IMG/VR virus record: IMGVR_UViG_3300031720_000001 | Source: an uncultured virus (IMG/VR IMGVR_UViG_3300031720_000001) | Lineage: Duplodnaviria; Heunggongvirae; Uroviricota; Caudoviricetes | Length of the DNA: 30,154 bases | Direction: 5' to 3' (one strand) | Part shown: positions 3 to 29,537 of the stretch, piece by piece | How positions within the stretch are numbered: the first letter of the stretch is position 1 | Layout of the letters: each line of letters starts with the position of its first letter | Translations under genes and position numbers: made by a program | Notes under the pieces: generated by a model | Database searches by the model: none | What the model saw: the letters and a program-made list of their open reading frames with translations, nothing else | What the model was told of the DNA's origin: nothing

Positions 3-870
3 GTCTCGCCGTTCGACACCCTCCTGCAAGGCGTGGTCAACGCCAGCGGCGGCGCGGGCAACGTACTCCGCGGCGACAACACGTGGCAGACCCTCGCCCA
101 GTTCACCGCTGCGTTGAACCTGTTCACCACCACCCTGCAGGGCGTCGTACCGGCGAGCGGGGCCGCCCCCAACTTCCTGCGCGGCGATGCCACATGGTCG
201 ACCATCGCCCAGGTCACTGCCGCCCTGAACGTCTTCACGACGGTCCTGCAGGGCCTCGTACCAGCGAGCGGAGCTGCCGCGAACTTCCTGCGCGGCGACG
301 CGACGTGGTCCACGATCGCCCAGGTCACCGCCGCGTTGGACCTGTTCACCACCACCCTCCGGGGACTGACCAGCCCCAGCGGCGCGGCCGCAAATTTCCT
401 GCGCGGCGACAATACGTGGTCCACGGTCGTCCAGGTCACCGCCGCCCTGAACCTGTTCACGACCACGCTCCAGGGCCTGGTACCCGCCAGCGGCGCGGCC
501 GGCAACGTGCTGCGCGGGAACGCGACGTGGTCGACGATCACCCAACTCACCGCCGCCCTGGATCCGTTCACGACGGCCCTGCAGGGGGTCACGACTGCCA
601 GCACGGCTGCCGCAAACTTCCTGCGCGGCGACAACACGTGGTCCACCGTCGTCCAGGTCACCGCCGCGTTGAACCTGTTCACGACCACGCTCCAGGGCCT
701 GGTACCCGCCAGCGGCGCGGCCGGCAACGTGCTGCGCGGGAACGCGACGTGGTCGACGATCACCCAACTCACCGCCGCCCTGGACGTGTTCACCTCCGTG
801 CTGCAGGGGGTCGTACCCGCCAGCGGCGGCGGGACCGCGAACTTCCTCCGCGCCGATGGCACGTGGGCCG
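3..870 (+). repeat. Intragenic 111-bp (37-aa) tandem repeat array with a 222-bp higher-order unit
   Basis: Unit ~LQGxVPASGAAxNFLRGDxTWSTIxQVTAALxLFTTx; 448-562 is identical to 670-784 (115 bp). Confidence 0.95.
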
Positions 871-1223
871 CGCCCACCTCCGGCGCCGCGGCCATGTTCG
901 ACACCGTGCTCAACCCCGCCACCATCACGTTCGGGGCGGCGTTCGACAACTGGAACCCGGGCGCCTTGGGGCAGAACACGCTCATCCGGTGCACGACCGA
1001 TGGATCGACCCGATCGGTGCGCGGCATGGTCGGCGGCGTCGACGGCAAGGTGGTGTGCCTCGCCAACGTGAACTCCAGCACCGCGGTGGGTGAGTCCTGG
1101 GTGGCGGAGGACGCTGCCGCGACGGCCGCCAACCGGTTCCGGTCGGGGTTCACCAGCGGCGGCTGCCTGTATCGCTACGACGGCACCCTGAGCCGCTGGG
1201 TGCTCATCACGGGCACGCCGTAA
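3..1223 (+). CDS. Tail-fibre/virion-fibre-like repeat protein, 5'-truncated by window edge
   Basis: Frame open from base 3 (VSPFDTLLQGVVNAS...). Eight LR[G/A][D/N]xTW-containing ~37-aa repeats, then a non-repetitive C-terminal domain ending LYRYDGTLSRWVLI. FLRGDGTW-type repeats are typical of phage fibres. Confidence 0.7.
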   Translation, partial: VSPFDTLLQGVVNASGGAGNVLRGDNTWQTLAQFTAALNLFTTTLQGVVPASGAAPNFLRGDATWSTIAQVTAALNVFTTVLQGLVPASGAAANFLRGDATWSTIAQVTAALDLFTTTLRGLTSPSGAAANFLRGDNTWSTVVQVTAALNLFTTTLQGLVPASGAAGNVLRGNATWSTITQLTAALDPFTTALQGVTTASTAAANFLRGDNTWSTVVQVTAALNLFTTTLQGLVPASGAAGNVLRGNATWSTITQLTAALDVFTSVLQGVVPASGGGTANFLRADGTWAAPTSGAAAMFDTVLNPATITFGAAFDNWNPGALGQNTLIRCTTDGSTRSVRGMVGGVDGKVVCLANVNSSTAVGESWVAEDAAATAANRFRSGFTSGGCLYRYDGTLSRWVLITGTP

Positions 1224-5960: not shown

Positions 5961-6311
5961 CTAGCCCTCCGGCTCGAACACGTCATCGGCGATCGCGCCG
6001 ACCACGTGGGGTTCGAGTACGCGGGCGAGCTCGTCGACGCGGCCGGCGAGCCAAGCCTGGTAGGCCTCCTCCGGATCTGCGGCGTGCTCCTTGATCTCGT
6101 CGTCGTGGTCGGCCAGCCAGGTCCTCTTGACCCGCGCGGAGAGCGCCTGCGCAGTCGTCTGGCAGGCCGCCACGATCGCGTCGGTCACCGAGGCGTCGTC
6201 CGCATCGAGGATGGTCTTGGCCACCTGTGCGGGGTCGATGTCGTGGCGGAGCCGGCGTTCCTCACGGCCCAGCAGATAAAAGCACCAGTACTTCCGCTTG
6301 ATTCTCGGCAT
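5961..6311 (-). CDS. Hypothetical protein
   Basis: MPRIKRKYW... preceded by GAGGGAG RBS. Confidence 0.7.
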   Translation of the reverse strand: MPRIKRKYWCFYLLGREERRLRHDIDPAQVAKTILDADDASVTDAIVAACQTTAQALSARVKRTWLADHDDEIKEHAADPEEAYQAWLAGRVDELARVLEPHVVGAIADDVFEPEG

Positions 6312-6325
6312 CCGATCTCTCCCTC

Positions 6326-6352
6326 TTGACGTCTCGTATACGGCGGTATACA
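6326..6352 (+). promoter_or_regulatory. Putative promoter/operator in divergent intergenic region
   Basis: TTGACG (6326-6331) and two GTATAC palindromes (6336-6341, 6346-6351) between divergent starts 6311 and 6366. Confidence 0.5.
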
Positions 6353-6365
6353 TCTTGGGTCGGTC

Positions 6366-6551
6366 ATGGGTCGAGCAAAAACAACGCAGCCCGATCCCAT
6401 CGAGCCGCGGGATTTGAGCGAGGTCATCCCAGCCCGGGTGTCGGCCCGGGTCAAGCACTTGGTGCGCCTGCGCGCGCGGCGCGCCGGGGTCTCGCCCTCG
6501 ATCTGGGTCCGATGGATCATCTACGAGGCCCTAGGGCTCAATAAGGAGTGA
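6366..6551 (+). CDS. Ribbon-helix-helix (CopG/Arc-like) DNA-binding protein
   Basis: VIPARVS...LVRLRARRAGVSPSIWVRWIIYEAL fits the RHH pattern. Confidence 0.65.
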   Translation: MGRAKTTQPDPIEPRDLSEVIPARVSARVKHLVRLRARRAGVSPSIWVRWIIYEALGLNKE

Positions 6552-11636: not shown

Positions 11637-12070
11637 GGTTCTTGTCGCTGTCCAGGCCGTGGCCGTGGGCGATCTTCGACCCGGTCGCGAACAAGGGGGT
11701 CGAGAACCGGTCGTGGATGCCGCCGGTCGAGATGATCGGCGAACGGTTTGCGATCCAGGCCTCGAAGTCGTGGGATCACGACGCCATCACGCTGTTCTTC
11801 AAGATGGGGATCACCCACTTCCCCAGCCGCAAGGACCAGTACCCGTCCGGCGTGATCGTCGGCGTCGCCACGCTGGACCGCGTCGTCACCACCGCCGCAA
11901 CGTTGCCGCCCGAGCAGGCCCGGTGGTTCTTCGGTGCGTGCGGGTGGATCCTGACCGACCGGATCGCCCTGCCCACCCCGGTCAAGTGTCAGGGTGCGCT
12001 GGGGCTGCGCATCCTGCCCAGCGATGCGACGGTGGAGGTCATCAGCCAGCTCGAGAAGATGGGAGTCTGA
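11633..12070 (+). CDS. ASCH-domain protein
   Basis: LSLSRPWPWAI...KGVENRSW...IQAS, GVIVGVATL, WFFG..GW, VKCQGALGL. Confidence 0.85.
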   Translation: MRFLSLSRPWPWAIFDPVANKGVENRSWMPPVEMIGERFAIQASKSWDHDAITLFFKMGITHFPSRKDQYPSGVIVGVATLDRVVTTAATLPPEQARWFFGACGWILTDRIALPTPVKCQGALGLRILPSDATVEVISQLEKMGV

Positions 12071-12071
12071 A

Positions 12072-12602
12072 GTGGCACGCTGGAACGGCTACGCGTTGAT
12101 GAGCTCGTGCGGCACGTACCGCTACGAGTTCGGCGGGGAGATCGGACCGTCCGAGCCGCTCCTGGCCATCACGCGCGCGGCCCACGTGATCCTGTGGATC
12201 ATGCTGAACCCATCCAACGCGACCGCCAGCAAGGACGACCCGACGCTCGGGACCGTGGTGACGTTCTCCGAGCTCTGGGGCTACAACCGTCTGGTGGTCG
12301 GGAACCTCTACGCTTACCGCACCAAGTCCCCCAAGAAGATGTGGGACGCCATGAGAACCGGAGTCGACATCGTCGGCCCTGAGAACAACACCTTTCTCAC
12401 CCAGATGGTCGAGCGGGTCCGCGACGCCGGGGGCCGGATCATGGCGGCGTGGGGTGGCGACGCCCAGCGCGAGCGCGTGAGGGAGGTCGCACACCTCGTC
12501 GGCGAGATGTTTTGCCTGAAGACCAACGGCGACGGGTCGCCGACCCACCCGCTCTATCAACCGCATGACCTCGTGCCCGTGCCGTGGAGGATTGCCGCAT
12601 GA
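12072..12602 (+). CDS. DUF1643 family protein
   Basis: SSCGTYRY, WIMLNPS.A....DDPT, VGNLYAYRTKSP, AAWG, PTHPLY. Confidence 0.9.
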   Translation: MARWNGYALMSSCGTYRYEFGGEIGPSEPLLAITRAAHVILWIMLNPSNATASKDDPTLGTVVTFSELWGYNRLVVGNLYAYRTKSPKKMWDAMRTGVDIVGPENNTFLTQMVERVRDAGGRIMAAWGGDAQRERVREVAHLVGEMFCLKTNGDGSPTHPLYQPHDLVPVPWRIAA

Positions 12603-12823
12603 CGGTGACAAAGGCTCAATTGGAGGGTCCGCTACGGCAGATCGCCGCGGCGCTCGAGGAGACACTTCCAACGATGATCGGCGTCGACGAACCGATCGGG
12701 TTCGCGGTCTTCCTGTTCGACTTCGGCGAAACGGGAAGCCTCGCCTACGTCTCCAACGCAAAACGCGAGGACATGATCGCTGCGGTCAAGGAGTGGCTCG
12801 CACTGCAGGGGAGCGCCGCGTGA
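12599..12823 (+). CDS. Conserved phage hypothetical
   Basis: GFAVFLFDFG...YVSNAKREDMI; GGAGG RBS. Confidence 0.7.
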   Translation: MTVTKAQLEGPLRQIAAALEETLPTMIGVDEPIGFAVFLFDFGETGSLAYVSNAKREDMIAAVKEWLALQGSAA

Positions 12824-13008
12824 AGGATGTTGCAACGCTCAAGGCGCGGTATCGCGATGCGAACGATGCGCTACAACGCGTGTGGACACTGGCGACTGGC
12901 ACACGCGGCTACAGCAAAAGCGACTGGATGCTGATCGACCGGGCTCTCAGTGAGAGCTTCCGCGCACTGGCCGAGACGATGGGGTACCGGGGCCCGCTGT
13001 TGCCATGA
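12820..13008 (+). CDS. Hypothetical protein
   Basis: GTGA overlap, GGGGAG RBS. Confidence 0.55.
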   Translation: MKDVATLKARYRDANDALQRVWTLATGTRGYSKSDWMLIDRALSESFRALAETMGYRGPLLP

Positions 13009-13346
13009 TCGAGCTCAACGAAGGCACCTATTGCCTGGGTGCGTGGCTATTGAGCGGGCCCCGCGGTGACTGGTTAGGAATCGCAACCCGTCAGGACGAT
13101 GAGCCTCTGATCCTGAGGTACCGCTTCCGGTGGAACATCGACCGTGATGTCGCGAGATGGTGCACGGCGATATTCCGCGGCAAGAACGAGGACCATGTCA
13201 TTGCCGCCGTCGACGCGTTGCTCGCGTCCCTCCGACGAGACGGATTCTCCGACCGCGAGCCCTGGAAGCGGATCATCCGAGGCGACGCGGAAAAGACCGT
13301 GGCGGTGCTTCGCAACTCGCCGTTCTTCAGGATCACCCCGTTATGA
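13005..13346 (+). CDS. Hypothetical protein
   Basis: ATGA overlaps at both ends. Confidence 0.6.
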   Translation: MIELNEGTYCLGAWLLSGPRGDWLGIATRQDDEPLILRYRFRWNIDRDVARWCTAIFRGKNEDHVIAAVDALLASLRRDGFSDREPWKRIIRGDAEKTVAVLRNSPFFRITPL

Positions 13347-14455
13347 TCGACCCCACCATCTCCGCGCACTACGTGGGCGACTGCCGCAAGCTGCTCCGCC
13401 AGTTGCCGGAGGCGTGCGTGCAGACCTGCATCACGTCCCCACCCTTCTGGGGTCTGCGCGACTACGGGAAGCGGGGGCAGATCGGCCTCGAGCGCACCCC
13501 GGAGAAGTACGTCAAGGTCCTGGTCAAGGTGTTCGAGGAGGTCTGGCGGGTGCTCAAACCCGACGGGACCCTGTGGCTGAACCTGGGGGACTCGTACGCG
13601 GGCTCTCGCTCGGGACCGCAAGGCGTCAACGGACAGATGGCCGACCGCACCGTCTCGAGGCACCGTGCGATGCGCGGCGTCACCAAGGGCATTGACCCCA
13701 AGAACCCACGCAAGGGGCCCGGGGCCAACGACGCCCCGAACCGCATCCGCCAGCGAGGCCTCAAGCACAAGGACCTCGTGGGGATCCCCTGGGCGGTCGC
13801 GTTCGCGCTCCGCGACGCGGGTTGGTACCTCCGCATGGACAACATCTGGAGCAAGCCCAACCCCATGCCCGAGTCGGTGACCGACCGCACCACGAAGGCC
13901 CACGAGTACCTGTTCCTCCTCAGCAAGAGCGCCTCGTACTACTACGACGCGGACACGATTCGAGAGCCACAGGAAACCCTCGGCGAGCGCCACGAGGGAA
14001 AGAGCGGATACCGCGACGGGCACCCCAGCAAGAACGGGCGTACCGCGAACACTCGGACACTACATCCGCTCGGTGCCAACAAGCGATCGGTCTGGGAGGT
14101 CCCGGCCGCGGTCACCCTCGAGTATGCGGAGGAGCAGGCCCGCGCATGGACCGCGCTCGCCGCCACGTTCCGAGCTGGCGGGAGCAAGCCCTCGGTCTGG
14201 AACGTCACCCCGGTCCCCTACCAGGGCGCACACTTCGCCACGTACCCCCCGGCCTTGATCGAGCCCTGCGTGCTGGCGTGCTCGCGCCCGGGCGATCTGG
14301 TGCTGGATCCGTTCTTCGGATCGGGGACCACCGGCGAGGTCGCCGAGCGCTACGAGCGGCGCTGGATCGGCTTTGACATCAACGAGGCGTACGCGTGTTT
14401 GGCCCGGGAGCGGACGGCCCAGCGGAGCTTGCCACTGGCAAGAGGTACGCCGTGA
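13343..14455 (+). CDS. Orphan N4-cytosine/N6-adenine DNA methyltransferase (beta class)
   Basis: GDC, catalytic TSPPF, RVLKPDGTLWLNLGDSY, WSKPNPMPESV.DR, AHFATYP, SAM motif LDPFFGSGTT. Confidence 0.93.
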   Translation: MIDPTISAHYVGDCRKLLRQLPEACVQTCITSPPFWGLRDYGKRGQIGLERTPEKYVKVLVKVFEEVWRVLKPDGTLWLNLGDSYAGSRSGPQGVNGQMADRTVSRHRAMRGVTKGIDPKNPRKGPGANDAPNRIRQRGLKHKDLVGIPWAVAFALRDAGWYLRMDNIWSKPNPMPESVTDRTTKAHEYLFLLSKSASYYYDADTIREPQETLGERHEGKSGYRDGHPSKNGRTANTRTLHPLGANKRSVWEVPAAVTLEYAEEQARAWTALAATFRAGGSKPSVWNVTPVPYQGAHFATYPPALIEPCVLACSRPGDLVLDPFFGSGTTGEVAERYERRWIGFDINEAYACLARERTAQRSLPLARGTP

Positions 14456-14670
14456 ACCGCGCCACCGTTGCCCTTCTGGTCGGGTTCTTTGTGGTCGGGT
14501 GGACCCTGTGTTACCTGATGGTGTTCCACTTCAGCGTCTTCGTGTGTGTGCTGTGTATCTCGTGGGGGTTGGCCCTGGTAACGGGGGTGGTGCTGCGGAT
14601 TCACTGGTGGCGCCAGCGCCGTAAGGAGCGAGAGCGGATCCCGAGGGCGGTCGGTAGGATGCGGACATGA
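14452..14670 (+). CDS. Small two-TM membrane protein with basic tail
   Basis: GAGG RBS; GTGA/ATGA overlaps. Confidence 0.6.
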   Translation: MNRATVALLVGFFVVGWTLCYLMVFHFSVFVCVLCISWGLALVTGVVLRIHWWRQRRKERERIPRAVGRMRT

Positions 14671-14882
14671 TGACCCAGCGGCGCGCTTTGCAAGTACTCA
14701 TCCGCCACGCAGCGGCCAACGTCGCCGGGGTTGGCTGCGGTATTCGGCCGGTCCTCTCCACCGAGGCCAAGGAGGACGTCTCTGCTGCGGTCCGCGCCAT
14801 GTGGCGTCGCGCGCACGGCTACCCGATGTCTGACAGCGACTGGTTCAACCTGCGACTGGATCCGCCTCGGAGTACCAAGTAG
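14667..14882 (+). CDS. Hypothetical protein
   Basis: Coupled by overlaps. Confidence 0.55.
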   Translation: MMTQRRALQVLIRHAAANVAGVGCGIRPVLSTEAKEDVSAAVRAMWRRAHGYPMSDSDWFNLRLDPPRSTK

Positions 14883-15518
14883 TGGCCGAGCTCATCGCAT
14901 ACGCGGCGCGCACGGGCACCCTCCGCAACCTCGCGGGCATCCGCGACCTGGGGTGGCGTCTCCTGTTGTCCGCGGCCGGCGAGCACCGGAGCGAGGGGTT
15001 CGAGGACCTTGGCATCGGCCTCGACAACGGCGCGTGGTCGGTGCGTGACACCGGCGGGTACCCGGCCGAGCTCAAGCGGCGTTTCATCCGGCTCCTGCTC
15101 GCACTAGGCGCGGTCGCCGACTGGGCGGTCCCACCGGACATCGTCGCAGGGGGGGGCAGATCGCTGGCGCTGGCTACCCTGGGTTCTGAGGCACTGCCGA
15201 CGGGCGCTCCTGGCCGTCCAGGACGGGATGACGGTCGACGAGGTCCGTCCGTACCTGGGCGGCGACGTCGGGATCTTCGTCGGCGGCTCCACGCCGTGGA
15301 AGCTCGCCACCATGGCCGAGTGGGCGGACCTCGCGCGCGAGAAGCGTGCGTGGTGTCACGTCGCCCGGGTGAACACGGCGCTCCGCATCCGCAAGGTCGC
15401 GCTGGCGGGCGCGACGTCGTTCGATGGCAGCAGTGCGTCGCGGTTCTTCGTCTCGCAGGCCGGGCTTGGACGCGCGGTCGCGCAACAACATCTCGTGCTC
15501 TCGGAGGACACTGAATGA
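14882..15518 (+). pseudogene. TGT/DpdA-like (deazaguanine transglycosylase-like) gene split by a +1 frameshift near 15149-15173
   Basis: First frame: LDNGAW, PDIVAGG. +1 frame: RWLPWV..LLAVQDGM, GIFVGGS, CHVARVN, SFDGS. Order mirrors TGT motifs DSGG/D/VQG/GG/H/DxFD; abuts queD. Confidence 0.65.
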
Positions 15519-15949
15519 TCGCCACGATCGCCAAGCAATTCACGTTCGATGCCGCGCACCGCCTGGACCGGCTACCGCCCGAGCACAAGTGCCATGGCAT
15601 GCACGGCCACACCTACGTCGTCGAGCTCATCTTCTCGGGCGAGGTCGACGCGAACGGGTTCGTGATGGACTACGCCGACATCGCCGAGATGTGGCAACCA
15701 CTCCACGCCGTTCTGGACCACAAGGTCCTGAACGAGGTGCCCGGGCAGGCGGTGCCGTCCACCGAGCACCTGGCCGGGTGGATCTTCGCGCACCTGATCG
15801 AGCGCAAGCCCGGGCAGAAGCCACTCACCAGCACGCCCGCCCAGGCGATGCTCAATGTGGTCCGCGTCAAGGAGTCGACCTCGACGTGGTGCGCGGTGTG
15901 GCGCAACGAGCTCCTGGCTGCAGACCTCGAGCGGTTCCTCCTGAACTGA
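15515..15949 (+). CDS. queD: 6-carboxy-5,6,7,8-tetrahydropterin synthase
   Basis: KQFTFDAAHRL, KCHGMHGHTY, LDHKVLNE, PSTEHLA, VRVKES; GGAGG RBS. Confidence 0.93.
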   Translation: MIATIAKQFTFDAAHRLDRLPPEHKCHGMHGHTYVVELIFSGEVDANGFVMDYADIAEMWQPLHAVLDHKVLNEVPGQAVPSTEHLAGWIFAHLIERKPGQKPLTSTPAQAMLNVVRVKESTSTWCAVWRNELLAADLERFLLN

Positions 15950-15952
15950 CCC

Positions 15953-16180
15953 ATGATCGATGCACGCAAGATTCGAGATCGGCGAGAGCGTCGGCGCACA
16001 GCGTTCCGGCGCGTGGCGGAGCTTCGCAAGGAGTTGGGGGACTTCGACCTTGTCGTTGCCCACCTGCAGCGTGAGCACGCGCGCGTTTACGATGCCATCG
16101 ACCTCCTGCGCCGTATGGGCGATGACTTGCGTAACACCCTGGGTAAGGCAGTCGACGCGCTCGACGAGTTGCCCCTATGA
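15953..16180 (+). CDS. Hypothetical coiled-coil protein
   Basis: Helical 75-aa ORF; ATGA overlap. Confidence 0.6.
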   Translation: MIDARKIRDRRERRRTAFRRVAELRKELGDFDLVVAHLQREHARVYDAIDLLRRMGDDLRNTLGKAVDALDELPL

Positions 16181-16770
16181 GGTGGCACAAATCATGGCGA
16201 GCGGACCCGGTGGCACGGCGGATCGCCGACGGGCATTACAGCCGGCAGAAGGTCGGGGCGGATCAATTCGTCCAGCCGGGTCGGTGCGTCGTCCTGGTCA
16301 TCCCGGAGGTCGCCTACTGGGTGACGTCGTGGCCGCTCCCCCAGTATGTCAAACACGCGTGGCCGAACGCGTGGTCCTGCGCGGCGTTCAGAAACCTCCG
16401 ACACTGCAGCATCTGTGGTCGCCCGGCTGTGTGCCCGGATCACCCGACGGCGCCGACGCGCACGCTCCACCGGTCCAGTGACCTGATCCTCTCGGCGATC
16501 GCAGCCACGCGGTTCTACTGGACGCCCCCACCGGTGGGGATGATCACGTTTGTCGACGAGACAAAGGTCTGCCACAAGCGCGATCCGGGGCGATGTTTCC
16601 TCAAGGCCGGGTTCCATCGCGCCGGCACCCAACCGGGATGCACCTGCGAGGGCACACCGCAGGAGACCGAGACCGAGGGGCACCTCGCGTTCCATCTCGC
16701 AGTGGACGCGATGCCGGCCGCCGTCCAGCCGCTGGGCGCCCAGTCGAGCCTCGTGCTGGGGGCGATGTGA
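16177..16770 (+). CDS. Conserved phage protein, possibly Mom/GNAT-like DNA-modifying enzyme, with a Cys-rich insert
   Basis: ADGHYSRQKVG..QFV.PGR, WSCAAFRN, SSDLI, GMITFVD..KV..KRDPGRCFLKAGF resembles the Mom-like TY.D...G..Y.A.GW signature. Confidence 0.55.
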   Translation: MRWHKSWRADPVARRIADGHYSRQKVGADQFVQPGRCVVLVIPEVAYWVTSWPLPQYVKHAWPNAWSCAAFRNLRHCSICGRPAVCPDHPTAPTRTLHRSSDLILSAIAATRFYWTPPPVGMITFVDETKVCHKRDPGRCFLKAGFHRAGTQPGCTCEGTPQETETEGHLAFHLAVDAMPAAVQPLGAQSSLVLGAM

Positions 16771-17048
16771 CGCGCCGGCACGGAAGAGTTGACTCGCGTG
16801 GCTTCGTGGTCGCCAAGCCGACACCGCACCTGATCATGCGAAAGCGCGCAGCGCGCTGGGGGCTCGAGTGGACGGTCGCCGAGGACCAGTTCTTGTTCCG
16901 CCGACTCCGCGAGCTCGAGGCGGACGGCGACAGAGAGCCGCTCATTGCCCTTGCCCGCGAGCTTGAGCGCGGGCGTCTGGCCATAGCCACACGGCTGTCC
17001 ACGCTGCGGGCGGGAGTGCGGCTCGCCCAGGACGGTCGCAAGCGATGA
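16767..17048 (+). CDS. Small HTH-like (WTxxED, Myb/SANT-like) protein
   Basis: WTVAEDQFL...IALARELERGRLAIATRL. Confidence 0.55.
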   Translation: MTRRHGRVDSRGFVVAKPTPHLIMRKRAARWGLEWTVAEDQFLFRRLRELEADGDREPLIALARELERGRLAIATRLSTLRAGVRLAQDGRKR

Positions 17049-17203
17049 CCGCGCGAGACCGCAAGCTCGTCATGTGGCTCCGCGACTTCATGTCCAACGA
17101 GCTCGGTGTGGTCGAGTACCGCCCCACGATTCGTCGCCTGGAGGCGGCGTATCGGATGCTCGAGAGATGGCTCGCCGCAGACGATAGGAAGCGCCGCCGA
17201 TGA
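17045..17203 (+). CDS. 52-aa hypothetical (absent from ORF track)
   Basis: MTARDRKLVMWLRDF...DRKRRR; ATGA overlap. Confidence 0.55.
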   Translation: MTARDRKLVMWLRDFMSNELGVVEYRPTIRRLEAAYRMLERWLAADDRKRRR

Positions 17204-17214
17204 TCCGCGCTGGA

Positions 17215-17733
17215 TCAGTCGTCGTTCACACCCGGCTCGGTCAGCGTGACCGCGGGGTTCCCGGCGACCGCGGTGCCGTCCATGACGAACGCGATCTCGA
17301 CGCCGTCGCAGTCGAGGTCACCGGTGGCCTTCGCGTTGAACGTCGCAGCGGTGCCGGTGTAGTCGTAGTAGAACAGCGTGGGCTCGTCGATCTGGAAGTC
17401 CAGCGCCTTCCAGACCGGATCGGCGACAAAGCCCGTGGGGTTGGCCAGGCAATGGTTGTTGGGACCGCCGCAGCACCCGCCGGTCCCCGGCTTGGCTGGG
17501 AGCTGCAGCGCGGTCCCGGGCGTGAACGCGGCGGTCTCCGAGTACACCCGCTTGGCGTTCTTGCCGATCTTGTTCAGTTGCAGACTGGCCTCCGTCTTCT
17601 TGGACCGCTTCATGTAGTCCATGAAGGCGGGGATCGCGACGGCCGCCAGGATGCCGATGATCGCGACGACGATCATGAGCTCGATGAGGGTGAAGCCAGG
17701 GAGAGGTCGGCGGGTGCGTCGAGTGGTTTGCAT
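17215..17733 (-). CDS. Type IV pilin (prepilin, PilA-like)
   Basis: Basic leader, then [25 protein letters not shown] with E5; C-terminal [16 protein letters not shown]. Confidence 0.93.
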
Positions 17734-17861
17734 GGTGCTCCACGTGCACGCAAGCAGCGGGCCGGCGGTAACCCGCTGCAATCGTGCGCTGGAGCATCCA
17801 GGAAGTGCCGAGAACTGTCACTGGCGGGCGCAAACTAGGCCCGCTGTCCATTGGAGGGGCT

Positions 17862-18146
17862 ATGCACACGTACATCTGTCGGCGCGGCGACGCCGAGATC
17901 CGGATCATGATCAACCTGGACTGGTCGGGCGAGGCCCACGTGGTCGTCGTGGACCCGGGGCGACGGAACGCCCGGGACCGGCTGCCCGCGGTCGATCTCG
18001 TCAATGGCGTGGTCCCCACGCGCGAGATCGTGGTGGAGAACCCCACGTGGCTGCTCCCGCACGAGTGGTGCTGGGCGGTCGCACTGGCGGCCCGCCAGTA
18101 CACCATCTACCAGTTGCGCGCGGCCATCCTGAGTGTCGGGGCATAG
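17862..18146 (+). CDS. Hypothetical protein
   Basis: GGAGGGG RBS; MHTYICRRG... Confidence 0.65.
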   Translation: MHTYICRRGDAEIRIMINLDWSGEAHVVVVDPGRRNARDRLPAVDLVNGVVPTREIVVENPTWLLPHEWCWAVALAARQYTIYQLRAAILSVGA

Positions 18147-18148
18147 AC

Positions 18149-18358
18149 GTGAGGGTCTCTGAATTGTCCGTCGGCGACCATGTCGAGGACTCCCGGACGG
18201 GCGCGGTCGTCAAGGTGGCCGCGATCGAGCCGTGCGGCTCGTGCCCATGTGGCTGGGGCGAGATTGAGTTGCATCAGATCGGACCCGACCCCCGCAAGAC
18301 GCGGAAGACGTTCAAGCAGTTCGAGCGCCTCAAGTTCGTTCGAAGGGTCTCCCTGTGA
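18149..18358 (+). CDS. Small hypothetical protein
   Basis: VRVSELSVGD...CGSCPC; GTGA overlap downstream. Confidence 0.55.
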   Translation: MRVSELSVGDHVEDSRTGAVVKVAAIEPCGSCPCGWGEIELHQIGPDPRKTRKTFKQFERLKFVRRVSL

Positions 18359-18579
18359 GTTGCGCTTGCCAGTGGCAACATCACCCGTCGTTGGGCGACG
18401 TGCTGGTGACCCCGTGCCACGAGCACATGGTGCAGAACCGGCTGTCCCATCTCGACCCGGAGACCCGCGACTACCACATCGTGCGCCTGCTCGACGCCGA
18501 GCTCGACCACTTCGTGCGTGAACACGCCAAGGGGCGTCGGGTCGAGCCCGCTCAAGCGCTCGGTCCAAGGAGGACGTGA
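18355..18579 (+). CDS. Hypothetical protein
   Basis: Coupled GTG start; GC3-rich. Confidence 0.55.
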   Translation: MSCACQWQHHPSLGDVLVTPCHEHMVQNRLSHLDPETRDYHIVRLLDAELDHFVREHAKGRRVEPAQALGPRRT

Positions 18580-18593
18580 TGGCCCAACTCGCG

Positions 18594-19061
18594 TCAGAAC
18601 AACTCGATCACGGTGAGCTTGCGCTGGGTGTCGTTCGCGCGGGCGCTACCGCCGATCGCGGCCCACCGGGTGTCGACGGTGTGCGACCCAGCAGCCAGTG
18701 TGATCAGGGCGTGCGCCGAACATGGCGCCAGGGTATCGACGGTCAAAAGGCCCAGCGTGACCGCGAGATTGCAACTGACCTGGCGGCGGGTCCCCGCGAT
18801 TTCAACGCCATCCAAGAACAGCGCGTAGTTGAAGTTGTCTGCGACGGCGGCGATATGGAAGTCGGCGTCGAACAGCGCCAGCAACTGGCCACCGATGGTG
18901 GTGACGGTCAGGGTCATCTCTGGGATCACCACGAAGGCGGCGTTGGCGCTGGTGGGGTTGGCGGTCGATCCGGTGACCGTGGCGCGGGCGCCCAGCGAAT
19001 CCCCTGCCTGGATCTGCTGGGGCTGGGGCGGGACGATGACCATGGGGCGGCGCGATGCCAT
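18594..19061 (-). CDS. Putative virion structural/fibre-associated beta protein
   Basis: Thr/Ala-rich; IPEMTLTVTT, LAAGSHTVDTRW, RKLTVIEL typical of fibre C-terminal domains. Confidence 0.6.
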   Translation of the reverse strand: MASRRPMVIVPPQPQQIQAGDSLGARATVTGSTANPTSANAAFVVIPEMTLTVTTIGGQLLALFDADFHIAAVADNFNYALFLDGVEIAGTRRQVSCNLAVTLGLLTVDTLAPCSAHALITLAAGSHTVDTRWAAIGGSARANDTQRKLTVIELF

Positions 19062-19070
19062 GGTCTCTAC

Positions 19071-19556
19071 CTAGAGCAGGATGGTGGTGTCGATCTCGAT
19101 CATCATCGTGACCGTGTCGATCGCGGTGCCGACCGGCGCCACGAACTGCCCGGCGGTCGCGGGGGCCGTCGTGGTGAGCTTGCCGGCCGCTGCGGCGTCC
19201 AGGAAGTACGCCGACCCGGCGGTGAGTCCGCCGGTCTGGCCGGTCACCGCGTCCCACTGCGTGGTGGTGGCGATCAGGGGGCCTTCGAGCGCGACCACAC
19301 CGGATGCCGATGCGGCAATGCTGGGGGATGTCGCGACCAGGCCGATCGCCCGCGTGGTCGCGGCGGCGTTCGCGCGGGCCAGTTGGAACGCGGTGTTGCC
19401 GCTGATGTAGACCGGCGCGCCGATCACGGCGGAGACGCCGCCGGCGTTGGTGAGGGTCAGTTCCATCGCTCCGGTCGTGGGGACGTCCAGCACGTCGCCC
19501 GCGGGGAGTTGCTGGATCTGGTTGCCAATGATGACGAGGGGCTTGCGCGCGGACAT
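19071..19556 (-). CDS. Putative capsid decoration/cement-like protein (DUF2190-like)
   Basis: GAPVYI...LARAN...AIGLV...GLTAGSAYFL...GKLTTTAP...VGTA; GGGAGA RBS. Confidence 0.65.
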   Translation of the reverse strand: MSARKPLVIIGNQIQQLPAGDVLDVPTTGAMELTLTNAGGVSAVIGAPVYISGNTAFQLARANAAATTRAIGLVATSPSIAASASGVVALEGPLIATTTQWDAVTGQTGGLTAGSAYFLDAAAAGKLTTTAPATAGQFVAPVGTAIDTVTMMIEIDTTILL

Positions 19557-19568
19557 GGGGTTCTCCCT

Positions 19569-20279
19569 TCAGTGAAGGAGGACGGGGAGGGTGAGCAAGA
19601 CGATGAGGGTGTCGGCGTCGCGGGCAGTACCTACGGCGACCACGGACTGTCCTGGGATCGTGGGAGGCGACGTCGAGATCTCACCCGGGGAGGTCGCCAA
19701 GGTGTACAGCGCGCCCGGAGTGAGGCCGCCGACCTGGCCGGTCACGGCGTCCCACTGCGCCGTGGTGAGGACCATGGCGCCGACGCTTTGCAGTGGCGTG
19801 GGCATTGTGGGTGCGGTGGTGGCGATCGCCAACCCCACAACGGGCGCGGTCGCCCCGGCCGATGCGTCGCCCCGCACGCCCAGGGCGGTCACCGGGGAGC
19901 CAGCCAAGATCGGTACGCCGGAGTTGTTGGTGACCGTGAACTGCTCGGCGGGGTTGGGGGCCCCGTTCGAGGACGGCGCGAAAGGACCCGGGCTCAGGCG
20001 GTTGGTGAAGCTGCCGTCTTGCCCGCTGTCACCGAACAGCCGGTCGATCGGATGCCACGCTTCGACCAGACACTCGCAGTCCGCCGCGACCAAGCCCAGG
20101 TTGGCCACGGTCACGGTGCTGGTATCGGCGTCGACGACCTCGAAGAGGCCCGCGGTGCGGAGCGCGATCTGGTCCGGCACCAGCGCGACGCCGCGGATGT
20201 TCAGGTGATGGGCTGCGAACACGACTCCGCTGGGCGCAACGCCCGTGAACGTCACCAGACTCTTCAGCACGTCCACCAT
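19569..20279 (-). CDS. Putative structural protein; C-terminal domain paralogous to 19071-19556
   Basis: Shared TTxQWDAVTGQxGGLTxGxxY.L...G..xTxxP..xGQ.V..VGTA. Confidence 0.7.
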   Translation of the reverse strand: MVDVLKSLVTFTGVAPSGVVFAAHHLNIRGVALVPDQIALRTAGLFEVVDADTSTVTVANLGLVAADCECLVEAWHPIDRLFGDSGQDGSFTNRLSPGPFAPSSNGAPNPAEQFTVTNNSGVPILAGSPVTALGVRGDASAGATAPVVGLAIATTAPTMPTPLQSVGAMVLTTAQWDAVTGQVGGLTPGALYTLATSPGEISTSPPTIPGQSVVAVGTARDADTLIVLLTLPVLLH

Positions 20280-20300
20280 CCCGGGAAAGGACTATAACTG

Positions 20301-20609
20301 ATGGGCCGCCACATCTACTACCAATGCCAGCGCTGCACCCAGATCCGCTGCAGGGCGTGCGAGACGCTCGCCCCCGAAGGCGAGCACAGCGAGATCAAGA
20401 CCGAGGTTCGGTGGTGCGGTAGCGAGGCGTGTATCGCCGACGAGGCGACTGCGAACGGGGTCAGCGTCGAGGCGATGAAGGCGCACAAGCGCAGAGTCCA
20501 ATCTGCGTGGCGACGCGATGTGGGGTGCCTCGAATCACCCCACCGGACGGACTGCGACAAGCAGACTGACCCGGCATTCCCTTGCAACTGCCAGCGGAGT
20601 GGACGATGA
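20301..20609 (+). CDS. Cys-rich hypothetical protein
   Basis: Multiple CxxC; AAAGGA RBS. Confidence 0.6.
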   Translation: MGRHIYYQCQRCTQIRCRACETLAPEGEHSEIKTEVRWCGSEACIADEATANGVSVEAMKAHKRRVQSAWRRDVGCLESPHRTDCDKQTDPAFPCNCQRSGR

Positions 20610-21010
20610 GCAGCCACCGGATCACGTTCGTTCTGACCGGCTACGTTGACGCGGTCAAGCGGAGCGTACGCCGGATGCTCGACAACCACGGATTTACCGA
20701 GGTCAGCTTCGATGTGGGGCCTGAGATGGTGCTCGTTCACGCCGATGGTGGCACGTGCCACGGGACACCGCTCGTCGACGGGCGGTGCCCCGCGTGCGGC
20801 ATCGTTCCGGACATGCAGTCGACGGAGATGTGGCCACGGGCGACGGTCTCTCTCGACGCCAGGACACCGACGCTTCCGAGGCGGCATGCACCTGTCCTAT
20901 CGAAGGATCTCTCGCGGGTGATCGGATGCCGCTGTGGCTGGCGACCCAGCGGAACGCCGGGCTCTGATGCAGAGACCGAGTTGGCGGAACATCACGCTTC
21001 GTGTCGGTAA
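20606..21010 (+). CDS. Cys-containing hypothetical protein
   Basis: MSSHRITF...CPAC...CRC; GGAG RBS; ATGA overlap. Confidence 0.6.
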   Translation: MSSHRITFVLTGYVDAVKRSVRRMLDNHGFTEVSFDVGPEMVLVHADGGTCHGTPLVDGRCPACGIVPDMQSTEMWPRATVSLDARTPTLPRRHAPVLSKDLSRVIGCRCGWRPSGTPGSDAETELAEHHASCR

Positions 21011-21014
21011 TGCC

Positions 21015-22022
21015 ATGCGTGTCCTCCTCCTTCACCTCGACGGCAAGCTGCCGAACATCGCGTTGATGCGGATCGCGCATCACCACCGGGCGCTGGGCAA
21101 CGAGGTGACGCTACGCCGTGCCGGCAACGCCAACGCGCTGGAGCCTCGGTTCGGCGATCCGGGCTGGGATCGGGTCTACGCATCGGCGATCTTCGAGCGC
21201 AGCCGGCCGCTCGCCGAGCGCGTCATGGCCCTCTACCCGCAGGCGGTGGTGGGCGGTACGGGCTCGTGGAATCTGTCGCAGACGCTGGAGAGCATCGGCG
21301 TGGCGACCGAGGGACCGATCGACTACACCGACTATCCACGGTGGCGGCAGTCGCTGGGCTTCACGATGCGCGGGTGCCGGCTGGCGTGCGAGTTTTGTGT
21401 TGTGCCGCGCAAGGAGGGCAAGGCGCGCGCGGTCGCGACCATCGACGAGATCTACCGCGGCGCCGGGCACCCCCTCGAGCTGGTGCTGCTGGACAACGAT
21501 TTCTTTGGTAACCCCAACGCCGACCAGGTCGCTGACGCCATCCGTGACGGCAAGTTCCGGGTGAACTTCTGCCAGGGCATCAACGCCCGCATGCTCTCGG
21601 ACCGCGCGGCGGAGGTGATCGCGTCGCTCGACTACCGCGACACGAACATGAAGACCCGGCGGATCTACACCGCCTGGGACTCCAAGGACGACGAGCGCGT
21701 GCTGTTCCGGGGGCTCGAGGCGCTGGTCCGCCACGGGGTCAAGCCGCGCCACATCATGGTGTACATCCTCATCGGGTTCTGGCCCGGGGAGACCCACGCC
21801 GACCGCGACCACCGGCGCGCGCAGCTCCGAGCGTTCGGCGCCCTGCCCTACCCGATGCCGTACCGGCGCACGCCTGAGCTCGTGGGCTTCCAGCGCTGGG
21901 TGATCGGCGCGTACGACAAGCGGATCCCGTGGAGCGAGTTCGCTGGAGCGCGGTTCTCGCCACGACAACTGGGCGACCGGACCACGTTGCCCTTGTTCAA
22001 CCCGCAACCACCCGAGGTGTGA
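21015..22022 (+). CDS. Radical SAM enzyme (phage type, PNIALM N-terminal domain)
   Basis: DGKLPNIALMRI, FTMRGCRLACEFCVVPRKEG (CxxxCxxC), LLDNDFFG, QGINAR, MVYILIG. Confidence 0.88.
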   Translation: MRVLLLHLDGKLPNIALMRIAHHHRALGNEVTLRRAGNANALEPRFGDPGWDRVYASAIFERSRPLAERVMALYPQAVVGGTGSWNLSQTLESIGVATEGPIDYTDYPRWRQSLGFTMRGCRLACEFCVVPRKEGKARAVATIDEIYRGAGHPLELVLLDNDFFGNPNADQVADAIRDGKFRVNFCQGINARMLSDRAAEVIASLDYRDTNMKTRRIYTAWDSKDDERVLFRGLEALVRHGVKPRHIMVYILIGFWPGETHADRDHRRAQLRAFGALPYPMPYRRTPELVGFQRWVIGAYDKRIPWSEFAGARFSPRQLGDRTTLPLFNPQPPEV

Positions 22023-26131: not shown

Positions 26132-27310
26132 ATGAGCAAGAAACCGAAGAAATCGAACCGCAAGGCGCCCACCGAGCTCCCGATCGAAGCGGACTACGGT
26201 GCCGCGAACATCCTGATCCAACAGGTCGGCCATCACATGGGCGTGGCGATCGAAGAACTCATTACCGGTCGCAATGCGGTCCACTACGGCGCGCTCCTCT
26301 TGCAGGCAATCGATACACTGAAGCGCCGGGACCTCCAGACCAGCGTGAGCGCTGCGCAAGAGGAAGACGCCCAAGCGCCGAGGGGGGTCTCCGATCGCTG
26401 GATGGATCGCGAAATCGACCGGGCCAACGCAGCGGCCAAGTACACGAGAGACCAGGACCCGGTCGTACCCCTTGCGCAAAACCGGTTCCGCGACGACCCG
26501 GGAGACACCCGCTTGCTCATCGACCTCATCGACCGCGAGCTCGGTCTTCCGTTCGATCCCCAGAACCCCCAGAGCCTTCAGGGGCGGCTGCGCGCGATCT
26601 ACGACGTGATCTTCCGCCTCAAGAACCCCTCGGGCGACGTCGCCACGGACGCCGACAGCGGCGCGCTCTCCAAGGGCGACTCGCTGGTCCAGGCGATCGA
26701 TCACAATGCCGCCCAGCGCGACCACCTGGCCACCGAGCTCACCGGGGCGCGTACGCTCATCTCCCGGATCGCTGCAGCGATGCAGATCGGGGCATGGGAC
26801 GCGGACGGCACCCAGTTGCTCGAGAAGGTGCAGCGCTGGGAGACGTTCAAACACCGGCTGGCCTGGCGGATCCGAGACTTGCGTAACGGGACCTCCGAGG
26901 CTCCGCAGAATCTGGCCTCCCTGGTCGCCGGCGAGCTCCAGACACACCTCTCCCGCCTCATGGCGCCCCGGGAGTTCGCGAAGTGGCTCGAGGGCAAGCC
27001 CCCGGGCGTGGTCACACCGGCGGTCGCCGAGCTCGCCGCCGAGCCCGCGCCCAAACAGGAACAGGAGATGATGAGCTCGGGCGATATCATCCGACTCGCG
27101 CGACTCATCCACAGGAACTTTGAACTGTCTCTCGAGGATCCCCTGGGGGATTACCTCGACAAGGTGTTCACCGCGTTATCGAAGTCGGTCGTCGCCAGCC
27201 AGGAGTTCCTAAACCTCATGAACCTGGTCATCCTGCCGCTCTTGGCCCGGCAAGCCGCGGCACAGGGCACGGGCACGGATGCCCGGTCTGCGCCCCACGT
27301 AGATCCGTGA
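26132..27310 (+). CDS. Hypothetical helical protein (392 aa)
   Basis: GGGAGA RBS; long GC3-rich ORF. Confidence 0.75.
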   Translation: MSKKPKKSNRKAPTELPIEADYGAANILIQQVGHHMGVAIEELITGRNAVHYGALLLQAIDTLKRRDLQTSVSAAQEEDAQAPRGVSDRWMDREIDRANAAAKYTRDQDPVVPLAQNRFRDDPGDTRLLIDLIDRELGLPFDPQNPQSLQGRLRAIYDVIFRLKNPSGDVATDADSGALSKGDSLVQAIDHNAAQRDHLATELTGARTLISRIAAAMQIGAWDADGTQLLEKVQRWETFKHRLAWRIRDLRNGTSEAPQNLASLVAGELQTHLSRLMAPREFAKWLEGKPPGVVTPAVAELAAEPAPKQEQEMMSSGDIIRLARLIHRNFELSLEDPLGDYLDKVFTALSKSVVASQEFLNLMNLVILPLLARQAAAQGTGTDARSAPHVDP

Positions 27311-28215: not shown

Positions 28216-29214
28216 TCACTCGTGGAACCGGATGTCGAGCTCTTGCGCCGGGGAGTCGGCCGTCAGGCTGGTGTTGTAGACCGTCACCAGGAAGTCGGCG
28301 TTGGTGGTGCCGGTCTTGACCACCGCGATCGGGATGGCCTGGGTGGTGGCGGCGGCGTTGCGGAAGGTCGACTGCACCGAGTCCTGCAGGCTGACCGGCG
28401 ATCCCAGGTAGGCGAACACCCGGGGCTTGAACGGCGCGGGCAACGTGACCGGGGTGCCGACCTCGAGCGGTACGGTGATCGCGTCCGCGATCAGGGTCGT
28501 GGTCGTCGAGAACCCCAGCACGCGACCGGTCAGGGCCCCGACGTCGTCGATCGAGAACGTCGAACCCGCGGTGGGCATGAACGTCCCGACGGCCACGTTC
28601 GCGGTGTCGATGGTGACGTTGCCACCCACCACCCAGAACACGTTGGCGGGATCCGCGCCGTTGGTGCAGTTGATGGTGGCGCCAGCGCCGGTGGTGAGCG
28701 CGCCGGAGATCCGGAACACGAACAGCCCGGGCCCGGACAGGTGAATCGTGCTGGCGGCGCTCGTCGTCGCCGCGCCGGTCACGACGTACACGCCGGCGGT
28801 GTATGTGCCCACGGTCCCGTGGGTGGCGTCGGTGGAGAGGTTGATGGCGCCGGGGGCGAATGAAAACGTGGCTGGCAGCGCCTGGAGCGCGGTGCGCGCG
28901 GTCGCCATGTCGGCCAGCGCCTGGGTGTACGTCGCGTCGTTGACGTGGATCGTGCCCGACACGGTGGGCTGCTCGACCGGCGCTGTCACGTAGCCCAGGT
29001 TGCCCGTGATGCGGGACCCCGGGACCGTGTTGACGTAGATCGGGCTCAGAACCCCGAACCGCTGCGCGGCGCCCAGATTGGGCGCCACGGGGGGCGTGGC
29101 CACAAAGCCCGGCAGCGCGAACGCGCCCGCGGACCCGGCCGGGATCGAGACCCCGGTCACCCGGATCAGCCGATCAGACACCTGCTTGACGACCGCGGTA
29201 CCCTCGAATGGCAT
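28216..29214 (-). CDS. Structural-type protein containing an ice-binding-like (DUF3494) domain
   Basis: NLGAAQRFGVL, ITGNLG, GTIHVND...QALAD, GVY, FVFRISGALTT, NGADPANVFWVVG, GRVL; C-terminal ~80 aa paralogous to the 29918 gene. Confidence 0.85.
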   Translation of the reverse strand: MPFEGTAVVKQVSDRLIRVTGVSIPAGSAGAFALPGFVATPPVAPNLGAAQRFGVLSPIYVNTVPGSRITGNLGYVTAPVEQPTVSGTIHVNDATYTQALADMATARTALQALPATFSFAPGAINLSTDATHGTVGTYTAGVYVVTGAATTSAASTIHLSGPGLFVFRISGALTTGAGATINCTNGADPANVFWVVGGNVTIDTANVAVGTFMPTAGSTFSIDDVGALTGRVLGFSTTTTLIADAITVPLEVGTPVTLPAPFKPRVFAYLGSPVSLQDSVQSTFRNAAATTQAIPIAVVKTGTTNADFLVTVYNTSLTADSPAQELDIRFHE

Positions 29215-29537
29215 GCCAGGAACGATACACCGCTGGCTAGCTGGGCAGAAATGCCACGTGCTGCCCAAAGAAACCATGTCCTCCCCGCTCCGTGCGTCGA
29301 TGACCTTCATGGGAGGTAAAAACCCCCTCTTACCGCCCGGACAAACAAGCTGGACCGAACTTGCGGGACGTTCCTTCTTGTGCCGGGAATCACGGTCTCC
29401 AAGGGCGCTTTGCTCGGTGGTTCCTGCCGTTCCTTCATCGGCAGGCCGGCTTGTCGCCGAGGGGCTTGGACGTTGCCCTTATTTGGGCGAAGAGGTTGGC
29501 ACGCTCGAGTGCGGGGAGCAGCGAGGGGATGGTCGCC

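Follow-up and report, generated by a model that had tools for sequence, protein, structure and literature searches.

A predicted Kofleriaceae-type major-pilin cassette with a host-like sigma-54 promoter region on a contig read as that of a tailed phage

The window analyzed here, i.e. the whole stretch of 30,154 nucleotides from an uncultured soil virus (IMG/VR record IMGVR_UViG_3300031720_000001), has a G+C content of 66.9% and is densely packed with short open reading frames (ORFs), most of which lie on the plus strand. The gene under study encodes a type IV prepilin on the minus strand and is flanked by one convergent and one divergent plus-strand ORF (Table 1). The initial annotation had described it as antisense to its operon. 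This holds for the immediate neighbours, the small ORF on the left and the open frame on the right that begins at 17784 (17784-18146, +), but not for the window as a whole, as further minus-strand genes are located at 5961-6458, 18594-20279 and 28216-29310.

Table 1. Features of the prepilin locus and of its surroundings in the window
Feature	Position	Strand	Basis or remark
3′ part of a tail-fibre-like gene	3..1223	+	7.6 copies of a 37-aa repeat
Small ORF of 52 aa on the left side of the insert, converging on the pilin gene	17045-17203	+	GC3 signature
Small hairpin TGATCC-GCGCT-GGATCA	17201..17217		Spans the stop codons of two convergent genes
8-mer GCGCTGGA, left copy	17207..17214	+	Chance-level
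Prepilin gene, 172 aa	17215..17733	-	Translation, profile matches, model, conserved columns
Leader, 13 aa	17695-17733	-	Remainder is the 159-aa predicted mature type IVa pilin
Divergent intergenic region with promoter, box and a remnant resembling a host inter-pilin spacer	17734..17861		Host comparison
Sigma-54-type -24/-12 element CGGCCCGCTGCTTGCG (string CGGCCCGCTGCTTGC)	17750..17765 (string 17750-17764)	-	Host comparison
8-mer GCGCTGGA, right copy	17786..17793	+	Inside the host-derived regulatory region
Upstream box GTGACAGTTCTCGGCA	17806..17821	-	0 mismatches, 58 nt from the -24 GG
Right-hand flanking ORF, divergently oriented to the pilin gene	17862..18146	+	Probable start ATG 17862 behind GGAGGGG
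Three paralogous phage structural genes	18594..20279	-	Fold of 19071-19556

The prepilin frame extends from an ATG at 17733 to a TGA at 17215 and can be translated without interruption. Since the third-position G+C of this frame amounts to 0.88-0.90, it is the minus-strand frame and not the overlapping plus-strand ORF that is coding. The predicted protein displays the features of a class III signal peptide, namely a glycine at position -1, a phenylalanine at +1, a glutamate at +5 and a hydrophobic N-terminal helix. The basic leader, which ends with the glycine, is rich in arginine, threonine and proline and carries a proline at -2 that is absent from all 71 aligned relatives. The head comprises 106 residues with four cysteines (C87, C88, C95 and C142), which are invariant in an alignment of 17 sequences (A1) and at least 90% conserved in a larger one of 72 sequences (A2); they may correspond to the conserved cysteines of the C-terminal disulfide region of type IVa pilins. 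Both general profiles for this protein class match above their cut-offs, PF07963 with 30.4 bits versus 21.2 (Pfam) and TIGR02532 with 33.0 versus 16.3 (NCBIfam), and the earlier description of the gene as an intact prepilin was thereby confirmed.

An AlphaFold2 model of the pilin built from 72 sequences reached a pLDDT of 92.1 and consists of a helix (H16-67) and four strands. We judged it against the lollipop fold, defined as a helix of ~50 residues packed against a four-stranded antiparallel sheet. The top structural match returned by VIA was the PAK pilin (1oqw, Z 7.7, rmsd 3.2 A over 121 aligned residues), and the gonococcal pilin (1ay2, Z 7.5) and PilA of Myxococcus xanthus (8tj2, Z 7.0) were likewise found. 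Foldseek gave probabilities of 0.99-1.00, yet the E-values were weak (0.017). The predicted structure hence folds like a pilin, with top structural matches that are all type IV pilins.

In public gene calls, the window pilin and three close relatives (P0123, P0002, P0004 and P0015) start at Met20 and comprise 153 residues. As a consequence, the leader and the cleavage site are missing and the Pfam domain is not assigned.

We then asked to which bacteria this pilin is related. A total of 7969 relatives were obtained, the best 120 of which are 71-91% identical to the window pilin, mostly 169 residues long and, where named at all, called PilA and assigned to the Kofleriaceae, a family of the Haliangiales within the Myxococcota. 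A scan of genome contigs with the pilin showed full-length identities of 41% or less among the matches listed, and a family-wide search of 138 Kofleriaceae genomes was used in its place. A pilin match at E <= 1e-30 was present in 106 of these genomes, commonly in the form of 2-5 tandem copies, and the closest host copies (in G042, G048, G052 and G058) share 72-79% identity over the full length. At the host loci L164-L178 and L188-L193, 2-5 pilA paralogs are arranged in tandem, and each has a sigma-54 element of its own. In three of the four annotated host loci, a gene for a PilR-type regulator (Response_reg, Sigma54_activat and HTH_8 domains) precedes the pilin array; at the fourth, L188, none was found adjoining the pilins. 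The prepilin peptidase PilD and a PilB were detected above the curated cut-offs in all five hosts tested. Judged from these comparisons, the window pilin is a member of what we define here as the Kofleriaceae pilA-array family. Assignment to the equivalog of M. xanthus PilA was rejected, as NF041775 scored 59.8 bits versus a cut-off of 400 and matched only residues 12-69. The N-terminus had initially been likened to that of myxobacterial PilA, which is correct insofar as the first 58 residues are alike; the host family, however, is Kofleriaceae and not Myxococcus, and the head is unrelated in sequence. As a side observation, several host genomes (G052, G042, G087, G080, G090 and others) contain frames of 470-1160 aa whose C-terminal parts match pilin residues 19-172 without a leader, and these frames may be pilin-domain fusions.

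The region upstream of the pilin gene was compared in detail to those of host pilin genes. Sigma-54 promoters follow the consensus TGGCACG-N4-TTGCW, with the GG and the GC ten bases apart. The initial annotation had pointed out a sigma-54-like string upstream of the gene. The corresponding element CGGCCCGCTGCTTGCG matches the consensus at 9 of 12 specified positions, which is weaker than most host copies (10-11/12), and its -12 C is separated from the ATG by 16 nt. The pattern YGGC-N7-TTGC occurs five times in the window versus 3.04 expected occurrences and would, taken alone, be at chance level. We therefore relied on position rather than on the pattern and drew on a set of 34 distinct host pilin genes for comparison. 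Two of them derive from the unpublished genomes G037 and G038; counts without these two are given in brackets. An element matching at 9 or more of the 12 positions was present in 31/34 host genes (29/32), and in 12/34 (12/32) the -12 C precedes the ATG by only 12-16 nt. A box, GTGACANTYCTCGGC, was found upstream with at most two mismatches in 21/34 genes (21/32), located 57-58 nt from the -24 GG in 9/34 (9/32) and 79-82 nt from it in 7/34 (7/32). The phage copy of this box is GTGACAGTTCTCGGCA, which remains without a second match in the window at a tolerance of up to three mismatches. Host genes and phage copy have the pattern GTGACA..TCGGC in common, and the box is a putative enhancer site for a PilR-type regulator. 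Since this register is common to the phage and the host genes, the sigma-54 string counts despite the chance-level pattern, and the original observation is borne out. The accompanying worry that the string might be uncomfortably close to the ribosome-binding site proved unfounded, as the short spacing is a normal layout of this pilin family. In the L164 and L166 arrays, for which the gene order was read, the later genes have the short spacing and the first gene has a long spacing with a Shine-Dalgarno leader.

Transcription usually starts 12 nt from the -12 C. The predicted message of the phage pilin would thus begin ~5 nt before the ATG and be almost leaderless. The same layout in the 12 host genes with short spacing, in which no Shine-Dalgarno sequence precedes the ATG, suggests leaderless pilin messages in the hosts as well. 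The box and the element in register, together with the spacer-like stretch further upstream, suggest that the phage took one inner array unit whole. By sequence, this unit would extend from about 17845 to the stop codon, corresponding to a cassette of ~640 bp (roughly 17205-17845). Among pilin-like genes on 80 IMG/VR loci, a sigma-54-like element (>=10/12, within 160 nt) was found for 20/81 versus 1% of random places; some of these 20 genes may be host pilA genes at the borders or flanks of prophages.

The boundaries of the cassette are inconspicuous. An 8-bp repeat at both flanks had been listed initially as weak evidence, and both copies of GCGCTGGA do exist. The 8-mer occurs nine times on both strands of the window, however, and a common 8-mer in the 60-nt flanks of random 519-bp segments has a probability of P = 0.11. 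Moreover, the right copy is flanked by the box on one side and by the promoter on the other and hence does not delimit the insert. On these two grounds, chance-level occurrence and a position within host-derived sequence, GCGCTGGA was rejected as a target-site duplication or insertion scar. The hairpin at 17201-17217 has a 6-bp stem and no T-run, and nothing resembling a terminator was detected behind the pilin gene on its own strand. The G+C content of the cassette (65.7%) is close to that of the window.

The remainder of the window was analyzed with regard to the nature of the contig. The profile scans took in every ORF of at least 250 aa with a coding signature and revealed no pilus-assembly families in 52 ORFs (Pfam) or 50 ORFs (NCBIfam) of the 30-kb window, in agreement with the initial statement that pilus-assembly genes are lacking nearby; nor did the Pfam and NCBIfam scans of the window reveal a pilus regulator beside the pilin gene. 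PHROG matches were obtained for 13/52 ORFs and include a DNA methylase, QueD, a radical-SAM protein, phrog_3230 (Pfam DUF1643) and a glycosyltransferase. The genes for DUF1643, an N6/N4 DNA methylase, QueD and the radical-SAM protein are located within 11994-16000 and 20934-22022 and probably serve DNA modification in the phage. Relatives of the radical-SAM gene with 50-65% identity were detected on 26 IMG/VR contigs. Of the three paralogous minus-strand genes to the right of the pilin, 19071-19556 was modelled with AF2 (pLDDT 89), and its top Foldseek matches are decoration or cement proteins of the phages XM1, Adjutor, Pam3 and HFTV1 (prob 1.00, E 0.002-0.006), so a capsid decoration/cement fold is predicted for its product. 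A plus-strand ORF of 573 aa (18576-20297) was rejected as a gene because it is the antisense shadow of these three genes; this shadow ORF may be what public gene callers report. The tail-fibre-like gene at the left end of the window contains tandem repeats with the core LQGxVPASGAAxNFLRGDxTWST. Its Atlas neighbours are phage depolymerase and tail-fibre clusters (0.84-0.91), which we regard as a lead only, and tblastn against phages yielded two partial matches to hypothetical proteins. The same search with 26132-27310 gave no match. Towards the right end, an Ice_binding-like domain (PF11999, E 1.4e-19) was detected in the 364-aa product of the minus-strand gene 28216-29310.

The parent contig has a length of 92,154 bp and bears both the neighbouring gene 16177-16770 and the pilin, called from Met20. 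Homologs of this neighbouring gene are located on many contigs of 70-92 kb, and none was found in IMG/VR. Megablast of 12000-22000 and tblastn of the pilin against INPHARED remained without match. The window contains no terminase, portal or major capsid genes and no integrase or repressor. The initial placement of the gene in a phage is supported by the capsid-decoration fold, the tail-fibre-like repeats and the PHROG matches, but not by terminase, portal or major capsid genes in the window. We read the contig as that of a tailed phage of about 90-92 kb infecting Kofleriaceae. To our knowledge, neither a cultured phage nor a pilus-dependent phage of this family is known.

The initial annotation had asked for read coverage across both junctions. 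The assembly was inspected in the only sequencing run listed for this region, which probably represents the source sample and in which 99/100 sampled words of 13000-22000 were present; no RNA runs with words of this region were listed. Positions 13921-17635 are represented without a difference, at a depth of 11.8, by a 3715-bp Logan contig, which thus connects the left-hand phage genes with the 3′ junction and with three quarters of the pilin gene. The Logan contigs break at 17606-17697, a conserved helix-coding stretch, where the depth rises to 489, which indicates a repeat. From 17700 to 21566 there is no covering contig, a gap that says nothing since only ~64/100 of the run was read. From 21566 on, the depth is again ~11, and the radical-SAM ORF is intact across this position. 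Coverage was thus obtained for the 3′ junction, whereas the 5′ junction (17700-17860) is not bridged by contigs. A chimera is unlikely.

We further analyzed how well the gene is maintained and how it is related to other pilin genes. At the nucleotide level, identity to the sampled host copies is restricted to the mature coding part, where it reaches at most 80.5%. Nevertheless, 91 of 92 columns conserved at >=90% among the 71 relatives are kept, with Y149F as the single miss. When compared to the closest host genes, dN/dS was 0.18-0.26 overall and 0.26-0.36 in the head; among pairs of host paralogs the overall values range from 0.09 to 0.68. In a tree of 160 rows, the window pilin falls into a clade of 14 rows (SH-aLRT 95), which also contains the relatives with 86-91% identity; the pilin with 91% identity lies on a contig of 89,130 bp. 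This clade comprises metagenomic proteins only and none of the 34 genes from metagenome-assembled genomes. Since the gene call of the window itself accounts for one of the remaining 13 rows, the clade has 12 other members, which could be host genes. The members of this clade have in common that they end in GVNDD and that their leaders are long and variable (13-21 residues) and rich in arginine, histidine and proline.

In IMG/VR, only one full-length relative of the pilin was found (54% identity), on the 85.6-kb contig L001, which also carries homologs of the window's capsid-decoration genes with 42-47% identity. Its Kofleriaceae-type prepilin belongs to another clade, has the leader MKKQSG and lacks a sigma-54 element. 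The pilin gene and the capsid-decoration homologs of L001 lie 8 kb apart (L001:9434-10486 and L001:17638-18709), and an integrase-like gene is located at 12428-13414. The pilin is absent from nine short metagenome loci with a homolog of 16177-16770 (best 56%) and from the 26 IMG/VR loci with the radical-SAM gene, which otherwise have only a methylase (two loci) and 2181-2528 (one locus) in common with the window. Since none of these 9 and 26 related loci holds a pilin, the cassette occurs sporadically.

To gain further insights into the possible function of the phage pilin, we compared it to already characterized systems. Phage morons are self-contained, independently transcribed inserts in phage genomes. 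The pilin resembles them in being a single gene with its own predicted promoter between two genes on the opposite strand, but differs by the lack of a terminator and of a compositional contrast and by a promoter of the activator-dependent host type rather than a constitutive one. The protein Tip is a phage inhibitor of type IV pili, and the same has been described for Aqs1 (PMC13436744). The goal of keeping pilus-dependent phages out is possibly common to these proteins and the window pilin. Aqs1 and Tip, however, are small proteins that disable the motor, whereas the window pilin would be a structural subunit that leaves the pilus working.

Closer precedents are phage-encoded relatives of pilus subunits. 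According to Sztanko et al. (Cell Rep 2026, PMC12952977), the phage-encoded pilus subunit P-FimU has been tested as a receptor replacement, and PilA-like 'P-PilA' proteins of Xylella prophages and of four groups of virulent phages are listed there as untested. As far as this source goes, the demonstration of anti-phage receptor replacement dates from 2026 and is limited to a minor pilin of Pseudomonas. Common to these cases and ours is a phage gene whose product is related over its full length to a structural subunit of the host type IV pilus, and the proposed action is incorporation into the pilus with loss of a phage binding site. Three differences are apparent. The window subunit is a predicted major pilin of a myxobacterial family, the Kofleriaceae; it is 77-79% identical to host paralogs versus ~50% for the Xylella P-PilA cases; and it keeps the host enhancer box and the sigma-54 promoter. 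Neither PilR nor RpoN was found mentioned in the accessible part of PMC12952977.

With regard to regulation, pilA of M. xanthus offers a point of comparison: it is under PilS-PilR control and has a PilR-dependent sigma-54 promoter (PMC6211767). The window gene resembles it in the N-terminal 58 residues of the product and in the sigma-54-type promoter (PMC6211767; 8tj2), and a PilR-type activator gene adjoins the pilin genes of Kofleriaceae hosts. In contrast to M. xanthus PilA, the window pilin is smaller (159 versus 208 mature residues) with a head of unrelated sequence, and the Kofleriaceae hosts possess tandem arrays, with many promoters 12-16 nt from the ATG.

Taking these data together, we propose that the locus is a Kofleriaceae-derived major-pilin cassette on a ~92-kb phage, the subunit of which enters the host pilus and keeps rival phages off, a reading to which we assign a probability of roughly 0.5. 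In an infected or lysogenic cell, the host sigma-54 RNA polymerase and a host PilR-type regulator would transcribe the phage pilin gene alongside the host pilin genes. Host PilD would cut the phage prepilin, and the mature protein would polymerize with the host pilins into a type IVa pilus. The changed surface of this pilus would fend off rival phages that bind to pili without abolishing pilus function, and the most likely pay-off would be a receptor replacement by analogy to P-FimU. The initial annotation had considered pilin swapping or poisoning. The evidence fits swapping, as the gene is intact and conserved, its product has a predicted pilin fold and it is preceded by a regulatory region of host type; poisoning finds no support since no conserved assembly feature is lost. 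Superinfection exclusion and effects on host motility, likewise put forward there, are putative.

An alternative for which the intactness and the host-type regulation fit equally well is that the pilin is a conversion gene that benefits the host, i.e. that an extra pilin allele alters adhesion, social motility, predation or kin recognition of the lysogen and has no anti-phage role. That hosts keep 2-5 divergent paralogs, each with a promoter of its own, would be in line with pilin variety serving the cell. We nevertheless consider this explanation unlikely, given that the window holds no sign of lysogeny and that the sole tested precedent of a phage-borne pilus subunit in PMC12952977 is anti-phage.

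Rather improbable in our estimation is that the gene is a neutral passenger, in which case part of a host pilA array would have been acquired by illegitimate recombination and be yet to decay. The absence of the cassette from 35 loci with common neighbouring genes would be expected for such a passenger, as would the G+C content resembling that of the window and the missing terminator. Yet the frame, all but one of the conserved columns, the promoter and the box are intact despite a nucleotide identity to the sampled host copies of at most 80.5%, dN/dS remains at 0.18-0.26, and L001 represents a second phage contig with capsid-decoration genes that carries a pilin, in this case of another clade.

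Very unlikely, too, is a shut-down of the pilus, in which the phage protein lowers piliation as a poor PilD substrate or decoy or as an input to the PilS-PilR pilin sensor. The unusual leader with its proline at -2 and the length variation of the leaders within the clade could be viewed in this light, and truncated phage pilins have been proposed as possible assembly blockers (PMC12952977). A decoy, however, would need neither a full head domain with four cysteines nor the conserved residues G-1, F+1 and E+5.

Finally, an assembly artefact in which a phage contig and a host pilin locus were joined through the sequence conserved at the pilin N-terminus appears hardly credible: the break of the Logan contigs in the high-depth stretch and the uncovered region to its right leave room for it, but the 3715-bp contig passes from the left phage genes into the pilin gene without a difference, the depth is similar on both sides (~12 and ~11), the right flank consists of phage genes and not of pilR or a second pilin gene, and the sampled words of the region are almost completely present in the run.

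Virus-borne pilins as such were already known. What our comparison would add is a PilR/sigma-54 wiring supported by the host genes and a named host family. The window case extends phage-borne pilus subunits to the Myxococcota and names a likely host. It also leads to a regulatory hypothesis, according to which the phage pilin is under host PilR/sigma-54 control with a conserved, nearly leaderless layout. Surveys that rely on annotation overlook phage pilins of this type, and similar ones may be under-counted through starts at Met20.

Beyond the proposed receptor replacement, we tentatively consider a broader idea, which we hold to be doubtful at present: pilin genes of Kofleriaceae may be modular cassettes, each composed of an enhancer box, a sigma-54 promoter and a nearly leaderless ORF, that move between host arrays and phages, with the phage copy plugging into the pilin homeostasis of the cell. 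Since the phage copy keeps the putative host PilR-dependent switch, its product would be made only when, and as much as, the host pilins are made. If this were true, the phage pilin would replace a share of the host pilins without overloading the membrane, thereby combining regulatory with structural mimicry.
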